From Patescibacteria group bacterium (GTDB taxonomy: Bacteria > Patescibacteriota > Patescibacteriia > Patescibacteriales > JBAZCA01), in assembly GCA_041661505.1 (NCBI GenBank), contig JBAZUF010000003.1, forward strand, positions 74,772 to 138,771: a stretch of DNA of 64,000 bases, given 5' to 3'. The notes below the pieces were generated by a model. It saw only the letters and a program-made list of their open reading frames with translations, did not search any database and was not told the origin of the DNA. Numbering within the stretch: the first letter of the stretch is position 1; every line of letters starts with the position of its first letter. Below, piece by piece: positions 27,242 to 55,700 of the stretch. The translations under genes were made by a program, and so were the position numbers.

Positions 27242-27242
27242 T

Positions 27243-33000: not shown

Positions 33001-33046
33001 CTGGAGGGCAATGTAAGGCAGTCTGGTTATAAAGAGAATAAAATAT

Positions 33047-37195: not shown

Positions 37196-37212
37196 AGACC
37201 GGGTTTTTCTTT
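37185..37212 (+). terminator. Terminator-like hairpin overlapping the neuA stop
   Basis: CCCGG-N9-CCGGG (5 GC pairs) followed by TTTTTCTTT. Confidence 0.35.
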
Positions 37213-37271
37213 AGGGGGCGAACACCGGGAAATCCATTGAAAGATGCATATATTAGTGCTAAACTGGATTT

Positions 37272-39231: not shown

Positions 39232-39240
39232 GATTAGTAT

Positions 39241-40281: not shown

Positions 40282-40399
40282 AAAAGATGCAGTTTAAGGA
40301 AGCGGATTAAGCGGTTTGACACCGCTTCGCGGCAAGCCCCTTATGCCCGGTATGGGAGCGCGCATGGGCGTTTGACAACCATGGCAAAAATAAAGCGAT

Positions 40400-41557
40400 A
40401 TGAAAAATGAAAAAAGAAAAATATTATTCATAACCGAACGCCGGGCGGATTACAGCCGGCTAAAGCCGATCATGCAGGCGGTGCGAAAAAGCCGGAAACT
40501 GGAATTAAAGCTTTTAGTTACCGGCGCGCATTTATTAAAGGATTTCGGCGAAACCAGAAAAATAATAGAGAGCGATGGTTTTAGAGTGGACGCGGTTTTG
40601 CCGATTTTTACGCATCAAGATGATGACGAAGGAACGCACATGATAAAAGCCATGGGCAAGGCTTTAATCGGCATGGCCGATGTTTTTAACCGGCTCAAGC
40701 CTGATATAGTGTTCTGTGGCTTTGACTTAGGCGCGCATCTCGCCGCCGCCATAGCCGGAATGCATTTAAACATCCACGTCGTCCATATCCAGGGCGGGGA
40801 AGTATCCGGAACAATAGATGAAGTTTTGCGCCATGCCCTTACAAAATTTTCACATATTCATTTAGCGGCAACCTACAAAAGCGTGAAACGGATAATAAAA
40901 ATGGGAGAAGATCCGCGCTATGTTTTTAATGTAGGCTCGCCTACTATCGATACTATCCGGTCAATTAAATATCCTTCAAAAGAAACGATCTGCAAAAAAT
41001 ATGGCTTGGATGCAAAAAAGAAACTGATAATTTTTTCCCAGCATCCGGTAACCACCGAAGTAAAAGAAGTGGTTAATCAAATTAATGAGAGCATCAACGC
41101 CTTAAAATACGCAGCAAAAAAATACAACCTGGAAGTCCTGGCTATCTATTCCAATAATGACGCCGGAGGAAAGCGCATAATCTCGAGCCTGAAAAAATCC
41201 GGGATAAAGGTCTTGCCGCATATTGTTTATGAAGATTACTTGCGTCTTATGAAAGTGGCTGATGCTTTAGTCGGGAATTCTTCCGCTGGAATCCACGAAG
41301 CGCCGTCCTTCGGACTGCCGACCGTTAACATCGGTTCGCGCGAACAATACCGCGAGCGGGGAGTGAATGTTATTGACTCGCGATGCAGTAAAAGGGATAT
41401 AACAAAAGCAGTGGAGAAATGCCTGTTTGATAAAAAATTTATTGCCAAAGTAAGGCGCGGAAAAAATCCTTATGATAACGGGCTGACGGCTAAAAAGGTG
41501 GTGAAGATTTTGGAAACTATCAAATTACCGCCGATTCAGAAGGTAATCACTTATTAG
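40400..41557 (+). CDS. neuC: UDP-N-acetylglucosamine 2-epimerase (hydrolysing), NeuC/LegG-type
   Basis: KILFITERRADYSRLKPIM, HIQGGEVSGTIDEVLRHALTKFSHIH, GNSSAGIHEAPSFGLPTVNIG. Confidence 0.8.
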   Translation: MKNEKRKILFITERRADYSRLKPIMQAVRKSRKLELKLLVTGAHLLKDFGETRKIIESDGFRVDAVLPIFTHQDDDEGTHMIKAMGKALIGMADVFNRLKPDIVFCGFDLGAHLAAAIAGMHLNIHVVHIQGGEVSGTIDEVLRHALTKFSHIHLAATYKSVKRIIKMGEDPRYVFNVGSPTIDTIRSIKYPSKETICKKYGLDAKKKLIIFSQHPVTTEVKEVVNQINESINALKYAAKKYNLEVLAIYSNNDAGGKRIISSLKKSGIKVLPHIVYEDYLRLMKVADALVGNSSAGIHEAPSFGLPTVNIGSREQYRERGVNVIDSRCSKRDITKAVEKCLFDKKFIAKVRRGKNPYDNGLTAKKVVKILETIKLPPIQKVITY

Positions 41558-41631
41558 CCGCCCGGAAAATGAAGGATGGGCAAGCTCGCTTCTTGTATTT
41601 ATTTATAGATTTTCATCGTTACATAAGCATT

Positions 41632-42486
41632 ATGAAGGCTTTGTTATTAGGCGGGACCGGATTCATTGGAACAAGCCTGGCGCGGGAGCTTATTGGCGCC
41701 GGAGCCGAGGTAATTTTAGTTGGCCTTAATTCCTTGCCAGATAGCGGGAGCTATGGTAAATTATTAAGCCATCAGATTGATTTAACCCGGCCTTCGGAGG
41801 ATTTGAAAAAATTGGCTGATGATAGCGATATTATCGTTATTTTAACCCAGCCGGATAAGAAGATTATTGACAATTTAATAGAAATATTTCAAGAGCTGAA
41901 AGAAAGAAAAAAGATTATTTATCTTTCCTCAATGCTCATATACCGGGATGAGCTGAAACTGGCAGATGAAAAATCTCCAATCCAGCCGGTTTCCGAATAT
42001 GAAAAAGGCAAGATCTGGGAAGAAGAAAGGCTGGGCGGAATAAGCCAAACCCATTCGATAATTATCGCCCGGCTGGCGAATGTTTACGGCAACAATCTGA
42101 ACCGGGGAATAATAAAAAAAATATTCAGCTCTTGTTTAGAAGGGAAAGAGCTTACTATTAACGGCGGCGGCAATTCAGTGAGAGATTACATTTATATCAG
42201 CGACCTAACGGCCTTTCTTAAATTATTGATTTTTTCCGATGCCGGGAAGGGAAAAGAAATTTACAATATTTGTACGGGCGAAGGAACCTCGGTAAACCAA
42301 CTCGTTAAAATGATTGGAGGGATTTGCAATAAAGAGATTAAGGTAAGGCACGCCCCGAAGATTATTGAAAAAGAGAGAATTGTCGGAGCTAACGGAAAAA
42401 TTACTGATAAAGCGGGATACCGGGCTGAATACGATATTAAAAAAGGATTGGTTGCGACATACAAAAATTTTTTAGGAAGAAAATAA
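41632..42486 (+). CDS. NAD-dependent epimerase/dehydratase (SDR)
   Basis: MKALLLGGTGFIGTSL Rossmann start and YEKGKIWEE (YxxxK). Start moved from 41569 to ATG 41632 so the Gly-rich loop is N-terminal. Confidence 0.6.
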   Translation: MKALLLGGTGFIGTSLARELIGAGAEVILVGLNSLPDSGSYGKLLSHQIDLTRPSEDLKKLADDSDIIVILTQPDKKIIDNLIEIFQELKERKKIIYLSSMLIYRDELKLADEKSPIQPVSEYEKGKIWEEERLGGISQTHSIIIARLANVYGNNLNRGIIKKIFSSCLEGKELTINGGGNSVRDYIYISDLTAFLKLLIFSDAGKGKEIYNICTGEGTSVNQLVKMIGGICNKEIKVRHAPKIIEKERIVGANGKITDKAGYRAEYDIKKGLVATYKNFLGRK

Positions 42487-42488
42487 CT

Positions 42489-43430
42489 ATGGAATGCCGG
42501 CTTTGCCAGTCAAAAAAAATAAAAGTGCTTAAAAGGGAATTAAGATATAAGACCCGGCGAAATGTTTTAAGCTGCCAAGCTTGCGGATTTATTTTCCTTG
42601 CCCCCTCCCAAAGCCAAATAAATTATCAAAGCAAGGATTATCGGAAAAAGTTCGGTCCGAGTTTAAAAAGAACTTCGGCCAGCCGGGAGATTTTTAGCCT
42701 TTATTCAAAATTCCAGGAGCCGATATTGAAAAATTTAAGGCCGATACTGAATAAAAGAATGAAAGTGCTGGATATCGGCTGTTCGACCGGACATTTTCTT
42801 AGCTCTTTGAAGGGACTGGTTGGGGAAAGGGTGGGGTTGGAATTAAGCCGCGATGCAGTGAATTTCATCAGGCGCAATCTTGACTTTAAAGTTTATTCCA
42901 AGCCGCTGGGGAGCGAACCGATAAAAGAAGGGCCGTTTGATTTAATAACTTGCCTTCAGGTTTTAGAGCATATTGAAAATCCGGCATATTTCCTAAAGGA
43001 AGTTGAAAAAAATTTAAAGCCCGGCGGATGGCTTTACATTGAAGTGCCGAACGTCGAGGACGCGCTATTGAAGCTATTTGCAGTTAAGGGCTATTTTGAC
43101 TTCTATTTTCGCGAGGCCCATGTATCCTATTTTAGCCAAAGGACTTTAAAAATGCTCTTAGCTCAAGCCGGATTTAAAGGCAAAATTTTTACCGCGCAAT
43201 GCTATAACATCTTAAATCACATTAACTGGGTTTTAACCGGAAGCCCGCAGGATAATTTTCAAACCGGGAATAGCGCGCCAGGGCTGGCAGTAGAAAAAGG
43301 CGGCAATCTGAAGGCCAAGCGGGAAATAAACAAAATAGTAAGAAAAATGGATATTGAATATAAAAAGATACTGGAAAAAAACGGCTTGGGAGAAAACATT
43401 GTTTTCTTAGGAAAGAAAAACGTCCATTGA
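42489..43430 (+). CDS. Class I SAM-dependent methyltransferase with N-terminal zinc ribbon
   Basis: CRLCQS..x..CQACGF ribbon, VLDIGCSTGHFL, ITCLQVLEHI, LKPGGWLYIEVPN. Confidence 0.75.
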   Translation: MECRLCQSKKIKVLKRELRYKTRRNVLSCQACGFIFLAPSQSQINYQSKDYRKKFGPSLKRTSASREIFSLYSKFQEPILKNLRPILNKRMKVLDIGCSTGHFLSSLKGLVGERVGLELSRDAVNFIRRNLDFKVYSKPLGSEPIKEGPFDLITCLQVLEHIENPAYFLKEVEKNLKPGGWLYIEVPNVEDALLKLFAVKGYFDFYFREAHVSYFSQRTLKMLLAQAGFKGKIFTAQCYNILNHINWVLTGSPQDNFQTGNSAPGLAVEKGGNLKAKREINKIVRKMDIEYKKILEKNGLGENIVFLGKKNVH

Positions 43431-43482: not shown

Positions 43483-44532
43483 ATGCAAAATGAATTTAAA
43501 AACAAAAAAATATTAGTAACTGGCGGAACCGGCTCGATTGGTTCGGTTATTGTAAAGAGCCTTTTAAAATTCGAACCGGCCCAGATCCGGGTTTTGTCTC
43601 GGGACGAATCCAAACAGCAGGCTCTCGCCCAGGAGCTCTCCGGCGATTTAAGGGTGAGGCTTTTAATCGGCGACATAAGAAACAAGGAAAGGGTGTTTAA
43701 GGCTATGGAAAACATTGATATTGTTTTCCACGCCGCCGCCATGAAGCACGTCTTATCCTGCGAAAATGACCCCTACGAGGCGGTAGAAACCAACGTCCGG
43801 GGGATGCAGAATATTATTGACTGCGCTATGGCCCACGACGTCGCGAAAGTAGTCGGCATTTCAACCGATAAAGCGACCGATCCGGTAAGCGTCATGGGCT
43901 GTACTAAGCTCTTGGCCGAAAAGGTGATGCTCGCCCATTACATGGGATCGCACCCGACTAAGTTTTGTTTTGTCCGCTTTGGCAATGTCCTAAATTCCCG
44001 CGGGTCGGTTTTACCGATATTTTACAAGCAAATCGCCAAAGGCGGGCCGGTAACCGTAACTGACAGGAATGTTGCCCGTTTTTTTATGTCCATAGAAGAA
44101 GCGGTGGAGCTGGTATTTAAAGCCTCCTCCTTAATGCAGGACCGCGAGATATTCGTTTTGAAAAATATGGCCATCGTCAGAATTTATGATTTAGCCAAAG
44201 CCATGATCGAGCTTTACGCCCCGCGCTTCGGCCATGATCCGAAAAAAATAAAAATTATAATTACCGGCTTAAAGCGGGGCGAGCGGATGCACGAAAAACT
44301 TTTAACCAAAGATGAATCCCGCTATGCTTTGGAAAATAAGGATATGGTTATCATCACTCCGGTAATCACTTACGGCCACAACGTTGAGCCAAAATACAAG
44401 GACGCGAAAAAATGCCGGGTTGGGGATTATGCCACCGAAGGAAAAAGATGCCTGCCGGTGGAGAAGATAAAGAAGCTTCTCATAAAGGATGAATATAAGC
44501 TGAACGGATCGATAAATAATTTTTATTTTTAA
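43483..44532 (+). CDS. Nucleotide-sugar 4,6-dehydratase, PseB/LegB/CapD-like (paralog A)
   Basis: KKILVTGGTGSIGSVIV, LIGDIRN, VFHAAAMKHV, STDKA, MGCTKLLAEK. Paralogous to 46118-47143. Confidence 0.7.
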   Translation: MQNEFKNKKILVTGGTGSIGSVIVKSLLKFEPAQIRVLSRDESKQQALAQELSGDLRVRLLIGDIRNKERVFKAMENIDIVFHAAAMKHVLSCENDPYEAVETNVRGMQNIIDCAMAHDVAKVVGISTDKATDPVSVMGCTKLLAEKVMLAHYMGSHPTKFCFVRFGNVLNSRGSVLPIFYKQIAKGGPVTVTDRNVARFFMSIEEAVELVFKASSLMQDREIFVLKNMAIVRIYDLAKAMIELYAPRFGHDPKKIKIIITGLKRGERMHEKLLTKDESRYALENKDMVIITPVITYGHNVEPKYKDAKKCRVGDYATEGKRCLPVEKIKKLLIKDEYKLNGSINNFYF

Positions 44533-44550
44533 TTGAAAAAGTGATATTTG

Positions 44551-44564
44551 TCCGGGATCCCGGA
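44551..44564. promoter_or_regulatory. Perfect 14-bp palindrome TCCGGGATCCCGGA (operator-like)
   Basis: Self-complementary as read. It occupies the -35 position of the extended -10 TGGTAAAAT at 44577-44585, upstream of the KpsC/S-like gene. Confidence 0.45.
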
Positions 44565-44576
44565 GAAAGATTATTT

Positions 44577-44585
44577 TGGTAAAAT
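44577..44585 (+). promoter_or_regulatory. Extended -10 element TGGTAAAAT
   Basis: TGnTAAAAT read directly. ATG 44601 lies 15 nt downstream. Confidence 0.35.
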
Positions 44586-44600
44586 TGGAACTAAAAGTTT

Positions 44601-46037
44601 ATGAAAATATTTTTAATCGGCTGGGACAATTCGGATGAAGCCTATGTCCGGACGGCGGAGAAATTAAAAAACAGCGGCATCGAAATCGTTTATTGGGTTG
44701 GCGGCGACAGGGAAGAAGGCTATGAAAATTGCCGGAAGATTTTCCCCGGTACAATTTTTCACCGGCGCCAGGACGCAATGCGGGGCAGGCGGCCCAAGGA
44801 GACGGGCGGGAAGAAATTTTTGCCGCCGGGGGAAGATATGATAAGCCGGTTTTATGAAACCGAATCGACGCTCCTCGCGATGAAGAATTTCGAAAAAACG
44901 CCCTTGCCGGGACTGGGAAAAAAAAGGCTGTTTCATGAATTTTTGGAATATTGGCATGGCGTCCTGGATGAATTTAGGCCGGATGCGGTAGTTTTCGGAG
45001 TTTGGCCTCATACCGGATATAATTACGTTGTCTACCAGATGGCGAAGTATTTAAAGATAAAAACCGTGATGTTTGAATACGCGCGGATTGGCGACCGGCT
45101 GCTGCTGATCAATGATTTTACCGAAGGCAGCCGGGAATTAAAAGCCAAGCTGGCCGAAGCGCAAAACCGGGAGATTAAACTCGAAGACTTAAGCGCCGAT
45201 GTCCGAGAATATTATTTAAACGAGACAAGGGACGGAAAATATGAGCTTCCCCCGGACATGCAGATTTTAAGCGGGAGATTCAGGGGATTGCGCTTAGCCC
45301 TTTTAAAAATACAGGCAGTACTTAGAAGCATCGCGGATTTTACCATTCTTAAGAAAATTTTGGAGGCCATAAAAAAGCGAAACAGCAATTTAAAAAAGGA
45401 ATATGAGAGCCTGCAGAAAGAGCCTGATTTCGAAAAAAAATACATTTACGCCGCTATTCATTATCAGCCCGAATGTTCAACCAGCCCTTTGGGCGGAGTT
45501 TTTGTCGATCAGATATTAATGATAAAGATACTGGCGGCGGCGATCCCGGAAAATTGGGAAATTTACGTAAAAGAGCATCCTTACCAGTGGCTCCCCAGCG
45601 GGCTGGCCTACTCGGCCTACCGCTATAAAGGGTATTATGAAGAGATGGCCAAAATCGATAAAGTGAGGCTGGTGCCTGCCAAAACAAACTCCAAGGAATT
45701 GATTAAAAAATCCCAGGCTGTCGCAACAGTTACCGGGACGGCCGGCTGGGAGGCTTTGATTAATTTAATCCCGGCTATAACTTTTGGCCACGCCTGGTAC
45801 CGGGACTGTCCGGGAAATTTTCGGGTAAAAAATGTGCAAACGGCTAGAGAAGCATTAGGCAAAATTAATGCCGGGCGCGGGCTTTCCAAAGGTGAAATTA
45901 TTAGATATTTATTTGCCCTGGATCGGTCAACTTTCCATGCTTACCTCGAAGATGTAGTTAAGCTTCAATCTAAGCTTACTTTGAATGAAAACGCAGAAAA
46001 TATTTCAAGTTCGTTATTAAAAGAATTGAAAACTTAA
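44601..46037 (+). CDS. Capsule-synthesis (KpsC/KpsS-like) family protein, candidate ulosonic-acid transferase
   Basis: YIYAAIHYQPECSTSP..IYVKEHPYQW..VATVTGTAGWEALINLIPAITFGHAWY resembles the Capsule_synth pattern. Second copy in the island. Confidence 0.45.
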   Translation: MKIFLIGWDNSDEAYVRTAEKLKNSGIEIVYWVGGDREEGYENCRKIFPGTIFHRRQDAMRGRRPKETGGKKFLPPGEDMISRFYETESTLLAMKNFEKTPLPGLGKKRLFHEFLEYWHGVLDEFRPDAVVFGVWPHTGYNYVVYQMAKYLKIKTVMFEYARIGDRLLLINDFTEGSRELKAKLAEAQNREIKLEDLSADVREYYLNETRDGKYELPPDMQILSGRFRGLRLALLKIQAVLRSIADFTILKKILEAIKKRNSNLKKEYESLQKEPDFEKKYIYAAIHYQPECSTSPLGGVFVDQILMIKILAAAIPENWEIYVKEHPYQWLPSGLAYSAYRYKGYYEEMAKIDKVRLVPAKTNSKELIKKSQAVATVTGTAGWEALINLIPAITFGHAWYRDCPGNFRVKNVQTAREALGKINAGRGLSKGEIIRYLFALDRSTFHAYLEDVVKLQSKLTLNENAENISSSLLKELKT

Positions 46038-46081
46038 AATATAAATTAAAAATGTCTGATAATACAAATTTTATTCGCTCT

Positions 46082-46102
46082 CCGCACACTGCTAGTGTGC
46101 GG
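46082..46102 (+). other. Perfect 9-bp stem-loop ending 15 nt before ATG 46118 (pseB)
   Basis: CCGCACACT-GCT-AGTGTGCGG. Confidence 0.55.
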
Positions 46103-46117
46103 ATCGTTCAATCATTT

Positions 46118-47143
46118 ATGAATACCGAAATTTTGAAAGATAAAGTGATTTTAATTACCGGCGGAACCGGGTCGTTTGGCCGGGGTTTTGTAGAATTTTT
46201 ACTCAAGAATTCGGAAGCCAGAAAAATAATTATCTTCAGCCGCGACGAATTGAAGCAGTTTCATATGGAAAACGAATTGCGCGAATATAGCGACCGGCTA
46301 AGATTTTTTTTGGGAGACATCCGGGACAAGGACCGGCTCCAGCGCGCTTTCCGGGGGGTGAATATCGTCATCCATGCCGCGGCCTTAAAGCAGGTGCCTA
46401 CTTTAGAATATAACCCCTTTGAAGCGGTAAAAACCAATATCATCGGCTCGCAAAACGTAATTGAAGCCGCCATTGACCAGGGCGTGGACAAAGCAGTGTT
46501 TATTTCTACCGACAAGGCGGCCCAGCCGGCCAATCTTTACGGCTCAACCAAGCACTGCGCGGAAAAACTTTTCGTTAACGCCGGCTCTTACTCCGGCGGG
46601 CGTACGACTTTTTCTTCCGTCCGTTACGGCAATGTGATTGGGAGCCGGGGAAGCATAGTCGAAGTATTGATGAAGAACCGGAATTTGGAAAGAGTGAGGG
46701 TTACCCACGCAGAAATGACCCGGTTTTGGATTACCCTGGATCAGAGTTTCGGGCTGGTCCTTTTTGCCCTGGAACATATGCGCGGCGGGGAAATTTTTAT
46801 TCCCAAAATTCCCAGCATGAAATTGATTGATCTTTTTGAGGCATTAGCGCCAAACGCAGTAAAAGAAATAGTCGGCATCCGGCCAGGAGAAAAACTCCAT
46901 GAAGCGCTAATCACCGCCGAGGAGTCCCGCCATACATTAGAACTCGATAATCATTTTGTGATTCTTCCCGAGTTTAAAAAGACCCCCCATACTGACAGGG
47001 TAATCGGTGAGCGCTACGGCCATTTTTTTGAAAAGGGAAAAAAATTGCCTGAAGACTATTGCTACTTAAGTAATAATAATCCCCATGTGCTCACCCCGGA
47101 GGAGTTCCGGCAAATCGTTAATGACTTATTCTCAAGCCTATAA
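46118..47143 (+). CDS. pseB: UDP-N-acetylglucosamine 4,6-dehydratase (inverting), PseB-like
   Basis: MNTEILKDKVILITGGTGSFG, FLGDIRD, VIHAAALKQVP, STDKAA, YGSTKHCAEK, followed directly by pseC. Start moved from 46052 to ATG 46118: the skipped 66 nt contain a perfect 9-bp hairpin. Confidence 0.75.
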   Translation: MNTEILKDKVILITGGTGSFGRGFVEFLLKNSEARKIIIFSRDELKQFHMENELREYSDRLRFFLGDIRDKDRLQRAFRGVNIVIHAAALKQVPTLEYNPFEAVKTNIIGSQNVIEAAIDQGVDKAVFISTDKAAQPANLYGSTKHCAEKLFVNAGSYSGGRTTFSSVRYGNVIGSRGSIVEVLMKNRNLERVRVTHAEMTRFWITLDQSFGLVLFALEHMRGGEIFIPKIPSMKLIDLFEALAPNAVKEIVGIRPGEKLHEALITAEESRHTLELDNHFVILPEFKKTPHTDRVIGERYGHFFEKGKKLPEDYCYLSNNNPHVLTPEEFRQIVNDLFSSL

Positions 47144-47144
47144 T

Positions 47145-48260
47145 ATGATTCCTTACGGCCGCCAGTCAATCGATAAAAAGGACATAGAGGCAGTGCTTAG
47201 CGTATTAAAATCGGCTTGGCTCACCCAAGGGCCGAAGGTTTTGGAGTTTGAAAAAGCTTTAGCCGAATACTGCGGGGCTAAATTCGCGGTCGCGGTTTCA
47301 AACGGAACTTCCGCCCTGCATCTGGCCTATCTGGCCGCCGGCATAAAAAAAGGCGACGAGGTAATTACTACCCCAAACACTTTTGCCGCCACCTCGAATA
47401 TGATTTTAGCAGTTGGCGCCAAACCGATTTTTTCCGACATCCGCCTGGATACTTATAATATTGACGAAAAAAAAATCGAGAAAGCAGTGAAAAAAAACAC
47501 CAAGGCGATTGTTCCGGTGCATTTTGCCGGCCAGGCCTGTGAAATGGAAGTGATTAATAAACTGGCTAAAAAGAAAAAGCTAATGGTTATTGAGGATGCC
47601 TGCCACGCCCTTGGAGCCAAATATAAAAATAGTAAAATCGGCCGTTGCAAGTTTTCCGATATGGCGGTTTTTAGCTTCCACCCGGTTAAAAATATAACTA
47701 CCGGCGAAGGCGGAGCGATAATGACCAACAGCGAGGCATTATATAAAAAGCTTGTTTCCCTGCGAAGCCATGGCATTTATAAAGACTCTAAAGGGAAAAA
47801 CGTTATGGTAGAGCTCGGGTATAACTACCGCATTACCGATTTCCAATGCGCGCTAGGCCTTTCCCAACTAAAGAGGCTGGACCGGATGGTGCGGGAAAGA
47901 AGAAAGATTGTTGGATGGTATAAAAAAGAAATGGCCGGAATAGAAGAAATTATATTGCCCAAGGAATTGGCCGGTAATTATTCCGCTTGGCACATTTACG
48001 TGATTAGAGTAAAAAATGCCCGGCTGCGGGACAAACTGTCGACCCATCTGAAAAGAAAGGGGATTGGAGCGAATTTTCATTATCCGGCGGTTTATTCGCA
48101 TCCATATTATAAAAAACTCGGATATAAGAAAAAAGGAATGGCGAATGAAGAAGTTTACCAGAATTCCTGCATTACTCTGCCGTGTTTTGTCGGTTTAACT
48201 AGAAAAGATGCGGGTTATGTCGCAAAGACCATTAAAGAATTTCTCCATGAAAAACACTAA
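47145..48260 (+). CDS. pseC: UDP-4-amino-4,6-dideoxy-N-acetyl-beta-L-altrosamine transaminase, PseC-like
   Basis: MIPYGRQSIDKKDIEAV..LTQGPKV is the characteristic PseC start. EDACHALGA, SFHPVKNITTGEGG (PLP Lys). The ATG lies 1 nt after the pseB stop. Confidence 0.8.
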   Translation: MIPYGRQSIDKKDIEAVLSVLKSAWLTQGPKVLEFEKALAEYCGAKFAVAVSNGTSALHLAYLAAGIKKGDEVITTPNTFAATSNMILAVGAKPIFSDIRLDTYNIDEKKIEKAVKKNTKAIVPVHFAGQACEMEVINKLAKKKKLMVIEDACHALGAKYKNSKIGRCKFSDMAVFSFHPVKNITTGEGGAIMTNSEALYKKLVSLRSHGIYKDSKGKNVMVELGYNYRITDFQCALGLSQLKRLDRMVRERRKIVGWYKKEMAGIEEIILPKELAGNYSAWHIYVIRVKNARLRDKLSTHLKRKGIGANFHYPAVYSHPYYKKLGYKKKGMANEEVYQNSCITLPCFVGLTRKDAGYVAKTIKEFLHEKH

Positions 48261-49191
48261 TATAATTATTGCCGGCTTCGGCTCAATCGGCCAAAGGCAC
48301 TACAAAAATTTAAAAACCCTGGGCTATAAAAACCTTTGGGTTTATGATCCATACATAAGCCAGCCAGGCAGAGAGGTGAAGCTGTTAAAAAAGTTAGATG
48401 AGAAAGAGCTAAAAAGCTTTGATATCGCTTTTATATGCAACCCCAACCAGCTTCATGTTGAAGCGGCATTAGCCTGCGCTAAAGCCGGGTGCCATTTATT
48501 TATTGAAAAGCCGTTATCACATAAACTGGAGAATGTAGAAAAATTGGCTAAAATTTGCCAAAAAAACAAATTAGTAAATATGGTTGCCTGCAATATGCGT
48601 TTTCATCCGGCCCTGAAATTTATAAAAAAATACCTGGAAGATGGTAAAATCGGCAAAATTCATAGCCTGCAGCTACAGACCGGCTATTTTCTTCCTTTCT
48701 GGCGCCCAAATTCCGATTACCGAAAAAATTATGCCGCCAAGAAAAAGACCGGCGGCGGCATAATTTTAGACGGGATTCATAATTTTGATTTATTATTCTG
48801 GCTAAACGATTTTAATAGGGTAAAAAAATCCAGTTTAGTGTACGACCGGGTAGGGAGCTTGGAAATTGAGACTGAAGATAATTTTGTGGCCGGTTTTGTA
48901 TTTCAAAATAAAGTTATGGGGTCCGTAATCGGCGACTATTTGCAGAAGGCTTATTCCTGGACAGCAAAAGTAGTCGGGGAGAAGGGAAACCTCGCTTGGG
49001 ATTTTAAAGAAAATATAGTCTGGCTCGCTGACGAAAAAGGAAAAAATAAATTATGGTCAATAAAAAATTACGACCCAAACAAGATGTACGCGGAAGAAAC
49101 AAAATATTTTCTAGACTGCGTTAGATCCAGGAAAAAAACTTTTAATGATATTACACGGGCGGCTGACGTATTAAAATATTGCCTAAAGTGA
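48247..49191 (+). CDS. Gfo/Idh/MocA family oxidoreductase
   Basis: NIIIAGFGSIGQRHYKNL, IEKPLSH. Paralog of 37272-38225. Start moved to ATG 48247 (14-nt overlap with pseC). Confidence 0.65.
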   Translation: MKNTNIIIAGFGSIGQRHYKNLKTLGYKNLWVYDPYISQPGREVKLLKKLDEKELKSFDIAFICNPNQLHVEAALACAKAGCHLFIEKPLSHKLENVEKLAKICQKNKLVNMVACNMRFHPALKFIKKYLEDGKIGKIHSLQLQTGYFLPFWRPNSDYRKNYAAKKKTGGGIILDGIHNFDLLFWLNDFNRVKKSSLVYDRVGSLEIETEDNFVAGFVFQNKVMGSVIGDYLQKAYSWTAKVVGEKGNLAWDFKENIVWLADEKGKNKLWSIKNYDPNKMYAEETKYFLDCVRSRKKTFNDITRAADVLKYCLK

Positions 49192-49269
49192 GTTGTATAA
49201 AAAATGTGTACAGACAGTTAGATGGAATTCTCATTTGTTTTTCATCGCGCTGTGCCCGTTTACTACGTT

Positions 49270-50040
49270 ATGAAAGATAAAGTGCTATGCATAATCCAGG
49301 CAAGGATGGGGTCAAGCCGCTTGCCGGGAAAGGTGCTTTTGGACCTGGCCGGCGAGCCGGTTTTGGCCCGAATTATTGAAAGGGTGAAAAAGTCCAAGTT
49401 AATCGATAAAATAATAATTGCCACGAGCGGAAAAAAAGACGATGATGAAATCGACCGCCTGGGAACAAAGCTCGGCATAGATGTCTTTCGGGGAAGCGAG
49501 AACGACGTGCTGGACAGGTATTATCAGGTGGCGAAACATTACGGTTATGGGCACATCGTCCGCGTAACCGGCGACTGCCCATTAATTGATCCGGGAATAA
49601 TTGACGAAGTTATCAGCTTATACCGCCTGGAAGACGTAGATTACGCGACTAATGTCATACCGCCGACTTACCCGGATGGCTTGGACGCAGAAATTTTTTC
49701 TTTCGCGGCTTTGGAAAAGGCCTGGAGGGAGGCCAAGCTCAATTCCGGCCGGGAGCACGTTACGGTTTATATGTGGCAGAACCCCGGCAAATTCAAGCAA
49801 GCGCATCTAAATAATAGCGTTGATTTATCGGCCAAGCGCTGGGTCCTCGACAATCCGGAAGATTACGAGGTAATGAAAAGTGTGTATGAAAAATTGTATG
49901 CTAATAACCCCGAGTTTAGAATGAAAGATTTGCTTATGTGGTTTGGCCTGCATCCGGAGATTGAAGATTTAAACAAAAAAATCGGACGGAACGAAGGCCT
50001 GGCCAAGTCATTAAAAGAGGATAAAATTATAGATAACTAA
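49270..50040 (+). CDS. Cytidylyltransferase, SpsF/FlmC/PseF-like (CTP_transf_3 superfamily)
   Basis: MKDKVLCIIQARMGSSRLPGKVL is the SpsF-type signature. VRVTGDCPLIDP. Start moved from 49222 to ATG 49270. Confidence 0.7.
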   Translation: MKDKVLCIIQARMGSSRLPGKVLLDLAGEPVLARIIERVKKSKLIDKIIIATSGKKDDDEIDRLGTKLGIDVFRGSENDVLDRYYQVAKHYGYGHIVRVTGDCPLIDPGIIDEVISLYRLEDVDYATNVIPPTYPDGLDAEIFSFAALEKAWREAKLNSGREHVTVYMWQNPGKFKQAHLNNSVDLSAKRWVLDNPEDYEVMKSVYEKLYANNPEFRMKDLLMWFGLHPEIEDLNKKIGRNEGLAKSLKEDKIIDN

Positions 50041-50052
50041 TAATAACCGAAT

Positions 50053-51342
50053 ATGAATTTCACGCGCTCAAACCAATTATTAAAAAAGGCGAAAAAATTA
50101 ATCCCCAACGCCACCCAAACCCTTTCTAAGGGCTATAAGATGTTTACCGAAGGCGAGTTTCCCTTGTTCGTTTCCAAAGCCAAAGGATGCTATATTTGGG
50201 ACGCTGACGGCAACAAATATATCGACTATACCTGCGCGCTCGCGCCGATAATCCTCGGCTACAGCGTTAACGAGATAAATTCTGCCATCAAAAAACAGCT
50301 GGAAAATGGGATTACTTATTCGCTTCCGCATAAGCTGGAAGTAGAATTGGCCGAAAAGCTTATAGAAATTATTCCTTGCGCCGATATGGTGCGTTTCGTG
50401 AAGAACGGCGTTGACGCGACTTCGGCGGCGGTGCGCATTGCCCGGGCTTATACCGGAAAAGAAATAGTCTTGCGCGGCGGCTACCACGGCGCCCAAGACT
50501 GGTATTTGGCTTCGCAGCCGCCCCAGGATTTAGGCGTGCCGAAAACGATGAAGAAGTTAATCGACATTTTTAAATATAATGACATTAAGGATTTTAAAGC
50601 GAAAATAAATAAGCACAAAGGAAAAATTGCCGCCGTCATAATGGAGCCGGTGCCGATGGCTGATCCAAAACCAGGTTATTTGGAAGAAATAAGAAGGATA
50701 ACCAAAAAAGAGGGAATAGTATTAATTTTTGACGAAATCGTAACCGGCTTCAGAATGTCTTTGGGCGGCGCCCAGGAATACTACGGAGTCATTCCGGATT
50801 TGGCTTGTTTTGGCAAAGCCATGGCTAACGGCATGCCCATCTCTTGCGTCGTGGGGAGCCGAAAAATCATGGAAAAAACCGAAGAGGTTTTTGTTTCCAC
50901 TACCTTTGGCGGCGAAACTTTGTCCATGGCCGCCAGCCTGGCCACCATTGATTTCATTATAAAAAATAAGGTAATAAAACACACCTGGAAGGTCGGCGGA
51001 ATACTATACCGCGGCCTGGAAGCCCTAATAAAAAAATACGGGATCAAAGCCCATTTAATCGGCCAGGAATTTAAATTCAAATTGATCTTTGACAATCCGG
51101 ACAAAACAGAATCAACTGCCAAGAAATTATATTTTCTCCAGCAGTCGGCCTACCGCGGCGTGTTCTGGGGCACAGTAATTACTTTTAACTTTAGCCATAA
51201 AGAAAAAGACATAAAATTTACTCTGAAAGCAGCCGAGGAAGTGTTTAGGAAAATGAGGGCGTTAAATGATGACGAAAACGAGATAAAAAAATTGGTTAAA
51301 GGAAAAATTCCGGTTAACAAATTTTTAAGAGACCAAAGATGA
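50053..51342 (+). CDS. Class III aminotransferase (glutamate-1-semialdehyde aminomutase-like)
   Basis: DADGNKYIDY, VKNGVDATSAAVRIAR, FDEIVTGFR, FGKAMANG (PLP Lys). Confidence 0.75.
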   Translation: MNFTRSNQLLKKAKKLIPNATQTLSKGYKMFTEGEFPLFVSKAKGCYIWDADGNKYIDYTCALAPIILGYSVNEINSAIKKQLENGITYSLPHKLEVELAEKLIEIIPCADMVRFVKNGVDATSAAVRIARAYTGKEIVLRGGYHGAQDWYLASQPPQDLGVPKTMKKLIDIFKYNDIKDFKAKINKHKGKIAAVIMEPVPMADPKPGYLEEIRRITKKEGIVLIFDEIVTGFRMSLGGAQEYYGVIPDLACFGKAMANGMPISCVVGSRKIMEKTEEVFVSTTFGGETLSMAASLATIDFIIKNKVIKHTWKVGGILYRGLEALIKKYGIKAHLIGQEFKFKLIFDNPDKTESTAKKLYFLQQSAYRGVFWGTVITFNFSHKEKDIKFTLKAAEEVFRKMRALNDDENEIKKLVKGKIPVNKFLRDQR

Positions 51343-52034
51343 AAGTATCCATATTCCAGCCAACTTATCTGCCCTGGCTCGGATTTTTTAAGGTGATTGA
51401 TTGGGCCGAAACGTATGTCATTTTAGACCACGTCCAGTTTGAGCATCACTCCTGGCAGCACCGCAATCGGATAAAAGGCCAAAACGGGGCGCTAACTCTA
51501 ACCGTCCCGATCGTGAGAGAATTCGGACAAAACATAAATAAAGTAAAAATTTGCTATGATAAAAATTGGATAAAAAAGCATTTAGATTCAGTACGGATGA
51601 ATTATTCCAAGGTACCGTATTTTCAAGATTTTTATCCGCTTTTGGAGAGTTATTATGCCAATCCGCCGGAAAAGCTCATCGACTTGAATCTGCGGATAAT
51701 AAAAGGGCTGTGCGAATATTTAGGCATTAATACTGAATTTGTCCTTTCATCCGGACTTGGCGCAGGAGATTTAAGAAAAAATGAATTATTAATCGACATT
51801 TTAAAAAAAACTCGCGCAGCCGAGTATCTCTATGCGGCCGGAGCGGCCGAGTATATGAACGAGGCGAAGGCCCTATATGAGGCCGCCGGCATAAAGCTCA
51901 TTCCGCTAGAGTTTGAACATCCGGTCTATAATCAGCCGCACGGCGGGTTTATTTCCCATCTTTCGATAATTGATATAATATTTAATTTGGGGAAAGAAAA
52001 AACTATCGAAATAATTAAGGAAATAAAATTATAA
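51339..52034 (+). CDS. WbqC family protein (function unknown)
   Basis: MKVSIFQPTYLPWLGFFKVIDWAETYVILDHVQF..WQHRNRI matches the WbqC-like signature. ATGA overlap. Confidence 0.7.
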   Translation: MKVSIFQPTYLPWLGFFKVIDWAETYVILDHVQFEHHSWQHRNRIKGQNGALTLTVPIVREFGQNINKVKICYDKNWIKKHLDSVRMNYSKVPYFQDFYPLLESYYANPPEKLIDLNLRIIKGLCEYLGINTEFVLSSGLGAGDLRKNELLIDILKKTRAAEYLYAAGAAEYMNEAKALYEAAGIKLIPLEFEHPVYNQPHGGFISHLSIIDIIFNLGKEKTIEIIKEIKL

Positions 52035-52049
52035 TATAAAAAATCATAT

Positions 52050-53192
52050 ATGGAAATACAAAAATCCCAAGAAGATAATAATGAGGCCAAGAGAAAATTG
52101 AATTACTTAAGTTTTATTTATAATGCCACCCACCCCAACCCGGCCGCGGCCAGCCCGCCGCACCAGGTTTATATTGAAATGACCAATGTCTGCAACTTGC
52201 GCTGCCTGCATTGCCCGCAAAGCACTATGCGCAGAAGGCCGCAATATATGGATATGGGGCTTTTCGAAAAAGTAGTAAAAGATTTAGCGCCGGGCTTGCC
52301 CTTTGTTGACTTGTATATGCAAGGAGAATCACTTCTTCATCCGAAAATTGTTGAAGCCGTAAAGATTTGTGCCGAAAACGGATTAAAGCCCCGGATTACG
52401 ACCAACGCCACTTTGTTAACCAAAGAGCTGTCAAAAAAATTGATCGGAGCCGGACTAAATAAAATCGAGTTTTCTTTGAGCGGGGTAACCAAAAAGACTT
52501 ATGAAGAAATGCACCGGGGGGCGATTTATGAAAAAACTTTAAACAACATTTTGGATTTTTTGGAGTTAAACGCCGAAGCCGGCTTTCCGGTTCATACCCG
52601 GCCGGTTTTTGTTGAAGAGGAAAAAACCAAGGCCGATAAAGAGCGATATTTATATTTATTTTCTAAGCTGCCTTTAGATGATGTTTACGTGAGCCCTCTA
52701 ATTAATATGTTTGGCTGGAACAAAGAGATAAATTTAAACCCTTTTAAATCAAAGCCGAGGGAAGAATGGCCGGTCTGCAAATGCCCTTGGCGGCAATTCG
52801 GCATAAACGCCGATGGCAGCGTCCGGGCCTGCATTTTTGATTACGATTCGCGCTATCTAATCGGCGACGCCAACGAATCGAATGTCTTAGAACTGTGGAA
52901 CGGCGAGGCTATGCAGAAATTCAGAAAAACCGTTATCGACCGGCGTTATGAGGATTTTGACAAGCCGGGATTGCCTTTATGCACCGAATGTTCGCAAATT
53001 TGGCCAACCGGCGACGATTCGCGGGATACGACCCAGTGGCCGAAAGATTTTGTGAAAGAAATGGAGCACTTTTTTTCGAGCCACGAGCCCCTAATGAAAG
53101 CCAAATACGCCAAAACCGGAGAGAAAGAAAAAAAATGGGGATATTTGAAGAATCATCGGGCCCAATGGATGGACGAAGCGCTGGGGAATTGA
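52050..53192 (+). CDS. Radical SAM protein with C-terminal SPASM-like Cys cluster
   Basis: YIEMTNVCNLRCLHCPQ (Cx3Cx2C). C-terminal CKCPW..GSVRACIFD..LCTECSQ cysteine cluster. Confidence 0.75.
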   Translation: MEIQKSQEDNNEAKRKLNYLSFIYNATHPNPAAASPPHQVYIEMTNVCNLRCLHCPQSTMRRRPQYMDMGLFEKVVKDLAPGLPFVDLYMQGESLLHPKIVEAVKICAENGLKPRITTNATLLTKELSKKLIGAGLNKIEFSLSGVTKKTYEEMHRGAIYEKTLNNILDFLELNAEAGFPVHTRPVFVEEEKTKADKERYLYLFSKLPLDDVYVSPLINMFGWNKEINLNPFKSKPREEWPVCKCPWRQFGINADGSVRACIFDYDSRYLIGDANESNVLELWNGEAMQKFRKTVIDRRYEDFDKPGLPLCTECSQIWPTGDDSRDTTQWPKDFVKEMEHFFSSHEPLMKAKYAKTGEKEKKWGYLKNHRAQWMDEALGN

Positions 53193-53261
53193 TGTGCGGG
53201 AAATCCGATGCCAACGATAATAACGCGTAGAGTTATGCAGGCCGGATTGGCCAGTAAGATT

Positions 53262-54323
53262 ATGAAAAACCTAGTAATTAAAACGCCAAGAGGAGAAAGG
53301 ATTATCGGCCCGGGCCAACGCGTCTTTATTATTGCCGAAATGTCGGGGAACCATAACCAGTCAATCGATCGCGCTTATGAAATTATTGACGCGGCGGCCG
53401 AAGCCGGGGTGGACGCGATAAAACTGCAGACTTATACCGCGGATACCATTACCATCAATTGCGATAATGAATATTTCCGGATTAAAGAAAGCGAACTTTG
53501 GTCCGGCCAAACCTTATATGAGCTTTACCAAAAAGCCTATACGCCTTGGGATTGGCAGCCCAAGCTGAAAGATTACGCGGAAAAAAAAGGTTTAATATTT
53601 TTTTCTACGCCTTTTGACGAAACCAGCGTGGATTTTTTGGAAAAGATGAATGTCGGACTATATAAAATTGCGTCGCTGGAAATCGTTGACATTCCGCTTT
53701 TAAAGAGGGTGGCTAAAACCGGCAAACCGGTGATAATGTCCAGGGGAGCGTCAACTATAGCGGATATTGAACTGGCTTTGAAAACCTTGAAAGAAAACGG
53801 ATCCGGGCCGGTTGCGGTTTTGCATTGCTTAAGCTCTTATCCGGCCGAATCCGAAACCATGAATTTAAAAACCATCAAAGATATCATGGAGAAGTTTGAT
53901 GTCGTGAGCGGTTTATCCGATCATTCTTTGGATAGGGAAGTTGATATCGCCTCAATCGCTTTGGGCGCCTCTATAATCGAAAAACATTTTACTCTTTCGC
54001 GCGAGGAAGGAGTAGACGCATCCTTCTCGCTTCTGCCGAAAGAAATGAAGGAATTGGTGAAAGCAATTAGAAAAACCGAGGATGCCTTAGGAGAACCATT
54101 TTACGGAACAGCAAAAGGCGAAGAAGAAAGCGTTCTTTTCAGAAAATCGCTTTTTGTTGTTTTAGATATTAAGAAGGGGGAGAAGTTTACCAAAGATAAT
54201 ATCCGTTCTATCCGGCCGGGGCAAGGCCTCCATCCTAAATATTATGAAGATATTCTGGGAAAGGCCGCCAAAAATAATTTGGTTAAGGGAACGCCATTAT
54301 CCTGGGAATTAGTTGAAAAATAA
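53262..54323 (+). CDS. pseI: Pseudaminic acid synthase, PseI-like (NeuB family)
   Basis: VFIIAEMSGNHNQS, DAIKLQTYTADTIT, LYELYQKAYTPWDW, KIASLE, LSDHS, IEKHFT, IRSIRPGQGLHPKYYEDILGK. Alternative starts at 53208 and 53235 cannot be excluded. Confidence 0.85.
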   Translation: MKNLVIKTPRGERIIGPGQRVFIIAEMSGNHNQSIDRAYEIIDAAAEAGVDAIKLQTYTADTITINCDNEYFRIKESELWSGQTLYELYQKAYTPWDWQPKLKDYAEKKGLIFFSTPFDETSVDFLEKMNVGLYKIASLEIVDIPLLKRVAKTGKPVIMSRGASTIADIELALKTLKENGSGPVAVLHCLSSYPAESETMNLKTIKDIMEKFDVVSGLSDHSLDREVDIASIALGASIIEKHFTLSREEGVDASFSLLPKEMKELVKAIRKTEDALGEPFYGTAKGEEESVLFRKSLFVVLDIKKGEKFTKDNIRSIRPGQGLHPKYYEDILGKAAKNNLVKGTPLSWELVEK

Positions 54324-54324
54324 T

Positions 54325-54942
54325 ATGAGGGTACTCTTATTCGCTCTAACCGGTTTTGGCAATAAAGTGATTGACGCGTTATTAGCCGAAGACTGTGAAC
54401 TAAAATATTTGTATACCCGTCCTGAAGCCGGGCCTTTTCCTTTTTATGAAGAAAAAAATATTTCCCAATACGCCGAAGAGTTAGGTATAAAGGCCGTTGA
54501 TGATTTTAACTGGGAAGACGTAAAAAAAGTGATTAGCGGCTACTCGCCTGAACTTTTGCTGGTTGCGTCTTTTCACCGGGTGATTCCGGAAGAAATTATC
54601 AAGCTAGTGCCTTTTTGCGTTAATTTTCACCCTTCTCTTCTTCCTAAATACCGAGGCCCGACGCCGATTGACTGGGTAATTTTCAATAAAGAAAAAAAAA
54701 CCGGAATAACCGCCCACTGGCTTACTAAAGGGCTGGACGAGGGAGATATCTTAATACAAAACGAGCTTTTAATAGAGGAAGGCGAGACCAAGAATGGCTT
54801 ATTCGAAAAATTAGCGATTTTAGCGGCCAAAACCAGCCGGCAGACTGTAAGAAAATTAAAAAGCGGGAATACGAGCGCTACGCCCCAAGACGCGTCCCAG
54901 GCTACGTATCAGCCTCGTTTTGACGCTAATCAAATAAAATGA
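54325..54942 (+). CDS. Formyltransferase (Fmt/PurN-like N-terminal domain only)
   Basis: MRVLLFALTGFGN, FHPSLLPKYRGPTPIDW, GITAHWLTKGLDEGDIL. The track start 54313 is a TTG inside pseI, so ATG 54325 is used. Confidence 0.7.
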   Translation: MRVLLFALTGFGNKVIDALLAEDCELKYLYTRPEAGPFPFYEEKNISQYAEELGIKAVDDFNWEDVKKVISGYSPELLLVASFHRVIPEEIIKLVPFCVNFHPSLLPKYRGPTPIDWVIFNKEKKTGITAHWLTKGLDEGDILIQNELLIEEGETKNGLFEKLAILAAKTSRQTVRKLKSGNTSATPQDASQATYQPRFDANQIK

Positions 54943-55700
54943 TCAAACGCGGTTTAAAACTTTGGACAACTAACCAGGGAGAAGTAATATCCGAAGCCAA
55001 GGAGTTATTAGACCTTGGCAGGGTTGATTTTTTAGAATTATATTACCATCCCGATTCAAAAGATTGGTCGAGATTTAAAATTTTCCGGGGAAAAATGGTT
55101 ACAATCCATGCCACCCATTACGACCACGGGTTTGATTTAATGTCGTTAAACGAGGGAATGCTGGAGATCTATAAGGATAAGATTTTGCCCTTGGCCGATT
55201 ATTTCGAGTCGCCCTATATCATCCTTCACCCAGGCGTGCGCGGCAATAAGGAGAAATTTTCAGCTAACCTGGATAGGCTATACGACCAAAGGCTGATAAT
55301 TGAGAATATGCCGAAAGTTTCTCTGGACGGGCAGAATTTTTTCGGCTATTCCTTGGATGAGTTAAAGTGGATAAAGGAAGAAAAAGAGATAAATTTTTGC
55401 CTGGATATCCCCCACGCGATTGTAAGCGCCAACCGCCAGAATATTGATTATAAGAAATTCATTGATGACTTGGCGCTGGAATTAAAGCCCGCGTATTTTC
55501 ATATCAGCGGCGTCAATATTAAATCAAAAAAGGACGAGCATTTAAATCTTTGGGAAGCCGATTTTGATTTAGCCTGGGTAAAATCAACCCTGGAAAAAGA
55601 GGCGGAAAATAAAGAAGTCTTTTTAGTATTCGAAGTGCCCAAAGTCGGAGCCAGCCTTAAAAATGATTTAAAGAATATTGAGTATTTTAGAGATATTTAG
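54939..55700 (+). CDS. Xylose-isomerase-like TIM-barrel protein (sugar-phosphate isomerase/epimerase-like)
   Basis: 253 aa. Alternating beta-alpha pattern with His/Glu/Asp at strand ends (FLELYYH, IHATH, IILHPG, IIENM, LDIPH, FHISG). Last gene of the + strand block. Confidence 0.45.
   Translation: MIKRGLKLWTTNQGEVISEAKELLDLGRVDFLELYYHPDSKDWSRFKIFRGKMVTIHATHYDHGFDLMSLNEGMLEIYKDKILPLADYFESPYIILHPGVRGNKEKFSANLDRLYDQRLIIENMPKVSLDGQNFFGYSLDELKWIKEEKEINFCLDIPHAIVSANRQNIDYKKFIDDLALELKPAYFHISGVNIKSKKDEHLNLWEADFDLAWVKSTLEKEAENKEVFLVFEVPKVGASLKNDLKNIEYFRDI

Follow-up and report, generated by a model that had tools for sequence, protein, structure and literature searches.

A TIM-barrel protein as the best candidate for non-orthologous replacement of PseG in a variant pseudaminic acid gene module of a Patescibacterium

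The synthesis of pseudaminic acid (Pse) has been treated as a fixed pathway of six enzymes, which act in the order PseB-PseC-PseH-PseG-PseI-PseF in C. jejuni and H. pylori, and PseG serves as its marker in genome surveys. In the 64 kb stretch of the Patescibacteria contig JBAZUF010000003.1 analysed here (the window), a twelve-gene Pse module located at positions 43483-55700 contains no gene for PseG or PseH and ends with the gene of a TIM-barrel protein (TIM). A non-orthologous enzyme most likely takes the PseG step, with this protein as by far the best candidate, because TIM genes are syntenic with those of PseI, PseG is absent from the loci concerned, TIM is found fused to GNAT and formyltransferase (Fmt) domains and the protein has a metal site of the endonuclease IV (Endo IV) type. 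The initial annotation of the window had proposed that a non-orthologous enzyme performs the PseG step and had named TIM as a candidate, and the same evidence bears this proposal out. We also consider fairly probable the variant route as a whole, in which TIM would act at the PseG step and an Fmt-like protein at the PseH step, with accessory enzymes decorating the sugar. Such a non-orthologous displacement of PseG within the known Pse pathway seems to be undescribed, since no paper in the open-access literature was found to tie the TIM family, Endo IV, xylose-isomerase-like proteins or MJ1311 to pseudaminic acid or PseG. All roles discussed below were assigned computationally, from family models, conservation, synteny, gene fusions and predicted structures.

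The searches for PseG and PseH covered the 64 kb window. With the NCBIfam models, no match to TIGR03590 (PseG) or TIGR03585 (PseH) was obtained for the 42 window open reading frames (ORFs) scanned, about a dozen others lying outside the scan. Reference sequences from annotated plasmids, namely pseG and pseH of a B. cereus plasmid and a PseG-PseH fusion of Parabacteroides, were compared with the whole window by tblastn, and nothing better than E = 0.3 was found. A PseG hidden Markov model (HMM) was then built from 102 sequences (100 homologues and the two references); it recovered both controls, with 540 and 247 bits, and matched none of the stop-to-stop window ORFs of at least 60 residues. Likewise, no match in the window was obtained with eight GNAT seeds resembling PseH or with the HMM derived from them. 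Within these 64 kb, the module thus lacks PseG and PseH, as the initial annotation had stated.

The TIM family comprises about 105 homologues in a word-indexed search, and 1215, 636 and 333 cluster representatives at E <= 1e-3, 1e-10 and 1e-30, respectively, in an exhaustive search. By scanning one genome per GTDB species with 20 of the closer TIM sequences, we obtained 59 loci. They belong to Patescibacteria (Parcubacteria, Saccharibacteria, Magasanikbacteria, Nomurabacteria, Uhrbacteria, Nealsonbacteria and Jacksonbacteria), to archaea (DPANN, Bathyarchaeia, Methanoperedens and the cultured methanogens Methanohalophilus profundi, Methanolobus vulcani and Methanosarcina sp. Ant1) and to Desulfobulbaceae, Desulfotomaculaceae and Firestonebacteria. 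In 49 of them the TIM homologue is close, that is, it scores at least 100 bits. A NeuB-family gene lies within 10 kb of TIM in 46 of these 49 close loci, a PseI-type gene in 45, and the distance is 1 kb or less in 27; in the three close loci without a NeuB-family gene, either the contig is very short or TIM lies at its edge. Of the 59 loci, 36 contain PseC and 31 contain PseB-like genes. However, the PseG HMM matched nothing in any of the 59 loci, nor in loci L001-L011, although PseB, PseC and PseI occur there.

The operons of isolate methanogens hold every canonical gene but PseG and carry TIM at their end. No PseG was found in the 20 kb examined around TIM in M. profundi (L051), where the operon reads as follows:

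Gene 1: PseB, 521 bits (cut-off 408)
Gene 2: cupin
Gene 3: PseC, 465 bits (cut-off 423)
Gene 4: PseF-like, 172 bits (below the cut-off of 206)
Gene 5: Fmt-like, L051:7039-7737
Gene 6: PIG-L deacetylase
Gene 7: PseH, 170 bits (cut-off 93)
Gene 8: PseI, 513 bits (cut-off 340)
Gene 9, the last: TIM, L051:9992-10741

The order PseB-PseC-PseF-PseH-PseI-TIM is also present in Methanosarcina Ant1 and in a Methanolobus metagenome-assembled genome (MAG). The Nomurabacteria locus L026 reads PseB-PseC-PseF-PseI-Fmt-TIM and thus presents the solution of the window in six genes. No match to TIM was found by tblastn on 72,556 plasmids, although 159 plasmids carry PseI homologues. Distant TIM paralogues (below 92 bits; L061 and L063-L069), mostly from DPANN archaea and bacteria of the candidate phyla radiation, have no PseI nearby, which points to a second, functionally distinct branch of the family.

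Gene fusions constitute a further link to the pathway. Among the top 150 TIM cluster representatives, 35 are fused to a GNAT domain, in proteins of roughly 400 residues, and one is a TIM-Fmt fusion. Both GNAT-TIM (15) and TIM-GNAT (20) arrangements exist, which suggests independent fusion events. In the five fusions scanned with NCBIfam, PseH is the best match of the GNAT domain in three and a weaker match in a fourth, and in a local search with GNAT seeds the PseH domain of the Parabacteroides fusion was the top match of several TIM fusions. Both partners, GNAT/PseH and Formyl_trans_N, are also found fused to canonical PseG. Since PseH and PseG catalyse consecutive steps, these shared partners are strong guilt-by-association evidence for TIM, and the PseH-like fusions, together with the sugar-operon context, argue against a role of TIM in DNA repair. 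TIM and PseG thus have in common their operon position next to PseI and PseH, their fusion partners and, by our reading, the same net reaction. However, they have no detectable sequence similarity, and PseG has a GT28-like GT-B fold whereas TIM is a barrel with a multinuclear metal site. Two PseG-Formyl_trans_N fusions, P0268 and P0300, were considered as a precedent for formylated Pse and rejected, as their Fmt-like domain lacks the catalytic Asn, replaced by Val in the Asn-x-His motif; they support the domain pairing only. The same Val-type subfamily adjoins the PIG-L deacetylase in the M. profundi operon, and it may be an acyltransferase using a different donor.

Structure modelling of TIM (54939-55700), which the initial annotation had suggested, revealed an Endo IV fold. 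The AlphaFold (AF2) model has a mean predicted local distance difference test (pLDDT) score of 97.2, and its best Foldseek matches are the Endo IV of four species (Thermus, Mycobacterium, Thermotoga and E. coli; E = 1e-10 to 6e-8). MbnB-type multinuclear iron oxidases (MNIO) rank alongside Endo IV, ahead of tagatose epimerases and xylose isomerases. Compared with the PDB sequences, the TIM family profile matches MJ1311 (1e-11) and several Endo IV entries, and weak matches to CbiR, which belongs to the same superfamily and is a small-molecule phosphodiesterase, were obtained with fused TIM relatives. Across 99 aligned homologues, nine residues never vary (E33, H57, H97, E122, C154, D156, H188, H201 and E232), and D199 is conserved in at least 90% of the family. 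In an hhalign alignment with E. coli Nfo, the pairs H97/H109, E122/E145, D156/D179, H159/H182, H188/H216, D199/D229, H201/H231 and E232/E261 (TIM/Nfo) were obtained, and H57, equivalent to Nfo H69, lines up with the HAP motif of Bacillus-type Endo IV. We take these Nfo residues to be its zinc ligands. Eight of the nine ligands are conserved throughout the TIM family; the window protein also has the ninth, H159. The retention of these columns indicates that TIM would keep a trinuclear metal site of the phosphoester-cleaving type. In contrast, sugar epimerases of the superfamily carry a four-residue Glu-Asp-His-Glu metal set.

TIM nevertheless differs from Endo IV in several respects: identity is 16-18%, the protein, with 253 residues, is some 30 shorter than E. 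coli Nfo (285), and it is found in a context of sugar biosynthesis and not of DNA repair. The window protein does not match the nfo family models (TIGR00587 and PRK01060), and its M. profundi orthologue stays far below their cut-offs (23.5 versus 129.65 and 39 versus 333). Nor does the window protein reach the cut-off of the MNIO (DUF692) models, its sole NCBIfam match being a very weak one to ApyH (19.9 bits, below 400). The family is named 'TIM barrel protein' by PGAP and has no NCBIfam model.

The genes of the module and the gene that flanks it are as follows:

43483-44532, + strand: PseB-like/Pen-like UDP-GlcNAc 4,6-dehydratase paralogue ('paralog A'); Polysacc_synt_2, 337 bits; PseB model, 283 bits, below the cut-off of 408
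44601-46037, + strand: KpsC/KpsS-like protein, putative CMP-Pse-dependent glycosyltransferase; Capsule_synth, 41 bits, residues 307-401
46052-47143, + strand: PseB, inverting UDP-GlcNAc 4,6-dehydratase; TIGR03589, 434.7 bits, above the cut-off of 407.75
47145-48260, + strand: PseC aminotransferase; TIGR03588, 465.6 bits, above the cut-off of 423.5
48247-49191, + strand: Gfo/Idh/MocA sugar oxidoreductase; Pfam GFO_IDH_MocA N- and C-terminal domains
49222-50040, + strand: SpsF-type cytidylyltransferase, probable CMP-Pse synthetase; CTP_transf_3, 118 bits; PseF model TIGR03584, 40.8 bits, below 205.7
50053-51342, + strand: class III (glutamate-1-semialdehyde (GSA) aminomutase-like) aminotransferase; Aminotran_3, 204 bits; PRK06209, 366 bits, below 486
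51339-52034, + strand: WbqC-family protein; PF08889, 231 bits, residues 7-222 (full-length match)
52050-53192, + strand: radical SAM/SPASM enzyme; Radical_SAM and SPASM domains, CX3CX2C motif
53208-54323, + strand: PseI, pseudaminic acid synthase; TIGR03586, 461.6 bits, above 340.25; NeuB model, 314.4 bits, below 399.65
54313-54942, + strand: single-domain N-formyltransferase; Formyl_trans_N (PF00551), 94 bits, sole domain
54939-55700, + strand: TIM, 253 residues; AP_endonuc_2, 33 bits
55773-57125, - strand: polyprenyl-phosphate glycosylphosphotransferase (Bac_transf), flanking the module; TIGR03025, 355.6 bits, above 295.55

The twelve ORFs of the module were all confirmed from the ORF list and the translations, and the gene order and motifs given in the initial annotation were recovered without exception. 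PseB, PseC and PseI are equivalog-level matches by the NCBIfam cut-offs. The possibility raised earlier that PseI might group with legionaminate synthases does not hold, as it exceeds the cut-off of the pseudaminate model and stays under that of NeuB. The longest ORFs of PseB and PseC (46052-47143 and 47085-48260) overlap by 59 nt, and such mechanical starts overstate both genes: the PseB model match begins only at residue 28, and PseC starts at 47145 (MIPYGRQ), in agreement with the gene call in locus L001. Gene ends overlap at 54313/54323 (PseI/Fmt) and at 54939/54942 (Fmt/TIM), from which translational coupling of PseI, Fmt and TIM appears probable. The cytidylyltransferase matches, with E = 1e-24, a cytidylyltransferase-like 'spore coat protein' from the pse operon of B. 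cereus. Paralog A shares 43% identity with the first SDR encoded in the Pse cluster of B. cereus. It is not conserved alongside the module in related loci; its membership in the module is uncertain and the neighbouring NeuB/NeuC module (36461-43430) may be its pathway.

Thus, the module shares with the canonical pathway orthologous PseB, PseC and PseI and the logic of dehydration, amination, N-acylation, UDP removal, phosphoenolpyruvate (PEP) condensation and CMP activation. It differs by the absence of the GT-B enzyme PseG and the GNAT enzyme PseH, by a cytidylyltransferase of SpsF type instead of PseF type and by six additional genes, those of the paralogue, the KpsS-like protein, Gfo, the class III aminotransferase, WbqC and the radical SAM enzyme.

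For the PseH step, the Fmt-like protein is the enzyme most likely to do the work of PseH or PseJ, giving 7-N-formyl Pse. When aligned with its relatives, its Asn-His-Asp catalytic triad is intact (VNFHPSLLPKYRG ... DEGD). Its PDB matches are Fmt and ArnA (82-84 bits) and sugar N-formyltransferases, among them PseJ (39 bits). PseJ is the enzyme behind Pse5Ac7Fo, which is tolerated by PseF (PMC11040635). The window protein resembles PseJ (PDB 6CI2 and 6CI4) in its Formyl_trans_N domain, its triad and its location in a Pse cluster without PseH. However, it is nearer to the N-terminal domains of Fmt and ArnA, and this recruitment of a formyltransferase was therefore probably independent of PseJ. 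As PseH is missing from the window, formylation at N-7 is the simplest reading, and from this absence and the six-gene cluster of L026 we infer that UDP-4-amino-4,6-dideoxy-L-AltNAc would be the substrate. The initial annotation had proposed that N-7 is formylated, or else carries a more complex acyl group made by the aminotransferase, WbqC and the radical SAM enzyme. The first part is plausible in view of the triad, the missing PseH, the PseJ precedent and L026; the second is abandoned, since the co-occurrence data led us to reject these three proteins as an acyl-group factory.

Other loci offer different arrangements at this step. WbqC is the sole candidate N-modifying enzyme in nine of them. 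A Saccharibacteria MAG (L018, 7.5 kb) has a compact PseB-PseC-methyltransferase-PseI-CTP_transf_3 cytidylyltransferase-TIM-WbqC cluster without GNAT or Fmt, where the N-7 amine would either be left free or be acted on by WbqC. In L017 (6165-8212), the Pse cluster contains an Antibiotic_NAT gene (aminoglycoside 3-N-acetyltransferase family), followed by the gene of a DUF4910/DUF2172/M28 protein, and this may be another PseH substitute.

Several observations weigh against the variant route proposed here. PseG or PseH could sit elsewhere in the source genome, beyond the 64 kb window, which is part of a 247 kb contig (ENA ERZ27249449, k141_1443700) of a MAG, and L004 has no PseB in its 20 kb, so that such pathways can be dispersed. 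In most TIM family members, the equivalent of Endo IV His182 is Lys, and the MbnB-like MNIO oxidases, which are top structural matches, share the trinuclear ligand set. The Fmt-like protein of the window is closer to Fmt/ArnA than to PseJ, L004 and L013 have both an Fmt homologue and a PseH-like GNAT, and in some loci Fmt may formylate a different amine; moreover, among the 50 sequences compared (the window and 49 loci), 21 are without a detectable GNAT or Fmt. Finally, the roles given below to WbqC, to the Gfo/aminotransferase pair and to the radical SAM enzyme are argued wholly by analogy.

The most likely alternative is a canonical pathway with PseG and PseH encoded elsewhere, TIM being a sugar epimerase, isomerase or dehydratase that tailors a hexose or the nonulosonate, and Fmt acting on another amine. 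The Pfam assignment of TIM, AP_endonuc_2, reads 'xylose isomerase-like', TIM has significant structural matches to tagatose 3-epimerase and xylose isomerase, pathway genes can be dispersed, as in L004, and the search of this genome was confined to the window. We nevertheless regard it as unlikely: PseG is missing from all the TIM loci and from L001-L011, the methanogen operons lack nothing of the canonical set but PseG, the ligands follow the eight-to-nine-residue Endo IV pattern and not the four-residue epimerase set, and the repeated fusion of TIM to a PseH-like GNAT parallels the PseG-PseH fusion. A little less likely still is that TIM is a UDP-sugar pyrophosphatase yielding UMP and sugar-1-phosphate, the sugar being freed by a separate phosphatase or the phosphorylated intermediate being used as such. 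Such a reaction would suit the superfamily, as Endo IV and CbiR cut phosphodiesters at phosphorus, and a HAD hydrolase is present in one related locus, L010. However, no phosphatase is conserved across the clusters, and synthases of the PseI type take the free reducing sugar.

It is highly improbable that TIM is an MNIO-like multinuclear iron oxidase modifying the sugar, with UDP released by WbqC or the KpsS-like protein: despite the MbnB complexes among the top structural matches and the faint ApyH score, its sequence profiles match Endo IV and MJ1311 and not MNIOs, the family is common in strict anaerobes (methanogens, Methanoperedens and Patescibacteria) where O2-dependent chemistry is unlikely, and the minimal operons L051, L059 and L026 encode neither WbqC nor the KpsS-like protein. 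The KpsS-like protein was also considered as a divergent PseG, both being GT-B-like, and was rejected on the grounds that the minimal operons do without it and that its resemblance is to a known class of Pse transferases. Replacement of PseG by TIM hence remains the preferred reading, and the accessory genes are discussed on that basis.

The initial annotation had treated the aminotransferase, WbqC and the radical SAM enzyme as a unit, which the related loci contradict. The class III aminotransferase is present in 22 of them and, given enough contig, is adjoined by a high-scoring SpsF-type cytidylyltransferase and an oxidoreductase. The latter is either a Gfo/Idh/MocA protein, found with the aminotransferase and the cytidylyltransferase in 13 related loci, or elsewhere an aldo-keto reductase. 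These oxidoreductase-aminotransferase-SpsF sets occur with or without WbqC and the radical SAM enzyme. As the core steps are complete in clusters devoid of the set, it is an add-on. The O-antigen cluster of Legionella pneumophila serogroup 6 has the same three gene types beside a canonical PseG (PMC3694923). In L010, which belongs to Uhrbacteria, Gfo, the aminotransferase and the CTP_transf_3 cytidylyltransferase are interleaved with the HAD hydrolase and an APH-type kinase, and a GNAT-TIM fusion is preceded by a gene set resembling ATP-citrate lyase or succinyl-CoA synthetase.

With low confidence, we suggest that Gfo and the aminotransferase turn a hydroxyl into an amine before CMP activation. 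This role is favoured because the PDB relatives of the aminotransferase, besides GSA aminomutase and aminopentol aminotransferase, include aminoglycoside C-6' aminotransferases, and because the architecture is like that of Kdo8N biosynthesis (PMC5125639). In Shewanella, the KdnB oxidase and the KdnA aminotransferase act before CMP activation, and the window likewise groups an oxidoreductase, an aminotransferase and a CTP_transf_3 cytidylyltransferase. The comparison is a pure analogy: the oxidoreductase is Gfo or an aldo-keto reductase instead of an iron-dependent alcohol dehydrogenase, the window aminotransferase is a class III GSA-like enzyme, and Pse has no primary alcohol, so that a secondary hydroxyl would be the target.

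WbqC occurs independently of the aminotransferase and often adjoins a methyltransferase in related loci. Modelling of 51339-52034, also advised in the initial annotation, gave a confident AF2 structure (pLDDT 96), but a comparison with PDB folds returned no significant match. Cj1324 (PtmG) of C. jejuni is, we presume, a member of the PF08889 (WbqC) family. PtmG/Cj1324 has been credited with acetamidino formation on legionaminic acid (bioRxiv 10.64898/2026.04.20.719630). By analogy, WbqC is a probable acetamidino-forming enzyme. Like PtmG/PtmH, which give acetamidino and N-methylacetamidino legionaminic acid, it is encoded in a nonulosonate cluster, and the pairing with a methyltransferase in related loci recalls ptmG-ptmH; unlike them, it stands in a Pse and not a legionaminic acid context.

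The radical SAM enzyme is sporadic, being present in only a few loci. Its closest solved relatives are BtrN, DesII and BlsE, all of which act on sugars or cyclitols, and by this analogy it probably modifies a sugar. For the KpsC/KpsS-like protein, only positions 176-267 of the 310 in the Capsule_synth profile match, and its sole PDB sequence match is KpsC (E = 6e-4). Its homologues adjoin TIM in L004, L013, L014 and L026. KpsS1 is a known Pse transferase (PMC11040635), and the window protein is most likely one as well.

Taken together, these assignments outline a putative route. PseB and PseC would convert UDP-GlcNAc into UDP-4-amino-4,6-dideoxy-beta-L-AltNAc, and the formyltransferase (54313-54942) would formylate its 4-amino group in the place of PseH or PseJ. 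The TIM metalloenzyme (54939-55700) would then free 2-acetamido-4-formamido-2,4,6-trideoxy-L-altrose from UDP, the PseG step. PseG needs no metal and breaks the C1-O bond; TIM, in contrast to this GT-B hydrolase, would probably use a metal-activated attack on phosphorus. PseI would condense the freed sugar with PEP, the SpsF-type cytidylyltransferase would form the CMP-sugar, and the KpsS-like protein would transfer this activated sugar to an acceptor. With lower confidence, WbqC would probably convert the 5-acetamido group to an acetamidino group, and Gfo and the class III aminotransferase would probably install an amine in place of the C8 or C4 hydroxyl ahead of CMP activation, on the Kdo8N model. 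The product could then be an undescribed nonulosonic acid, a 7-N-formyl, 5-N-acetimidoyl Pse with a third amine at C8 or C4 ('Pse8N') and a further modification by the radical SAM/SPASM enzyme, but this full structure, drawn by analogy, is a tentative and rather doubtful proposal. The oxidoreductase-aminotransferase-SpsF trio spans Patescibacteria, Methanoperedens and Legionella serogroup 6; if the product is of the 'Pse8N' type, this spread would make such sugars widespread.

The rest of the window is also rich in glycan genes. Directly upstream, a second nonulosonate module (36461-43430) contains a NeuA/PseF-like cytidylyltransferase (166 bits with the PseF model), two Gfo/Idh/MocA proteins, an SDR epimerase, a methyltransferase, NeuB (375 bits, just under the cut-off) and NeuC (385 bits), and the organism thus probably makes two different nonulosonic acids. 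Besides WbqC, the window encodes at 31586-34303 the N-acetyl-sugar amidotransferase system by which acetamidino groups are classically made (HisF-like, HisH-like and WbuX, the last with 399 bits). Four B12-binding radical SAM proteins (240-1652, 14173-15588, 20496-23159 and 30148-31584), one of 887 residues, are encoded in a glycan island with many SAM methyltransferases, which suggests unusual C-methylation or other radical sugar chemistry in a Patescibacterium. Finally, at 26126-28247 a FemAB-like protein (TIGR04421, 61 bits) adjoins a short DegT-like protein matching the C-terminal two-thirds of the DegT model; the pair fits the 'IMCC1989' hypothetical-equivalog families.

The apparent exchange of PseG for TIM recurs in many uncultured bacteria and in methanogenic archaea. 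If our reading is true, surveys based on PseG under-call Pse in candidate-phyla bacteria, DPANN archaea and methanogens; the TIM family as a whole counts the 636 cluster representatives found at E <= 1e-10. TIM would also open a new class of enzymes, the metal-dependent nucleotide-sugar hydrolases of the AP-endonuclease-2 superfamily, of use for the chemoenzymatic synthesis of Pse derivatives. For the organism itself, it would mean that episymbionts with tiny genomes spend more than 12 kb on an elaborate surface sugar akin to sialic acid, which is relevant to host attachment and recognition.

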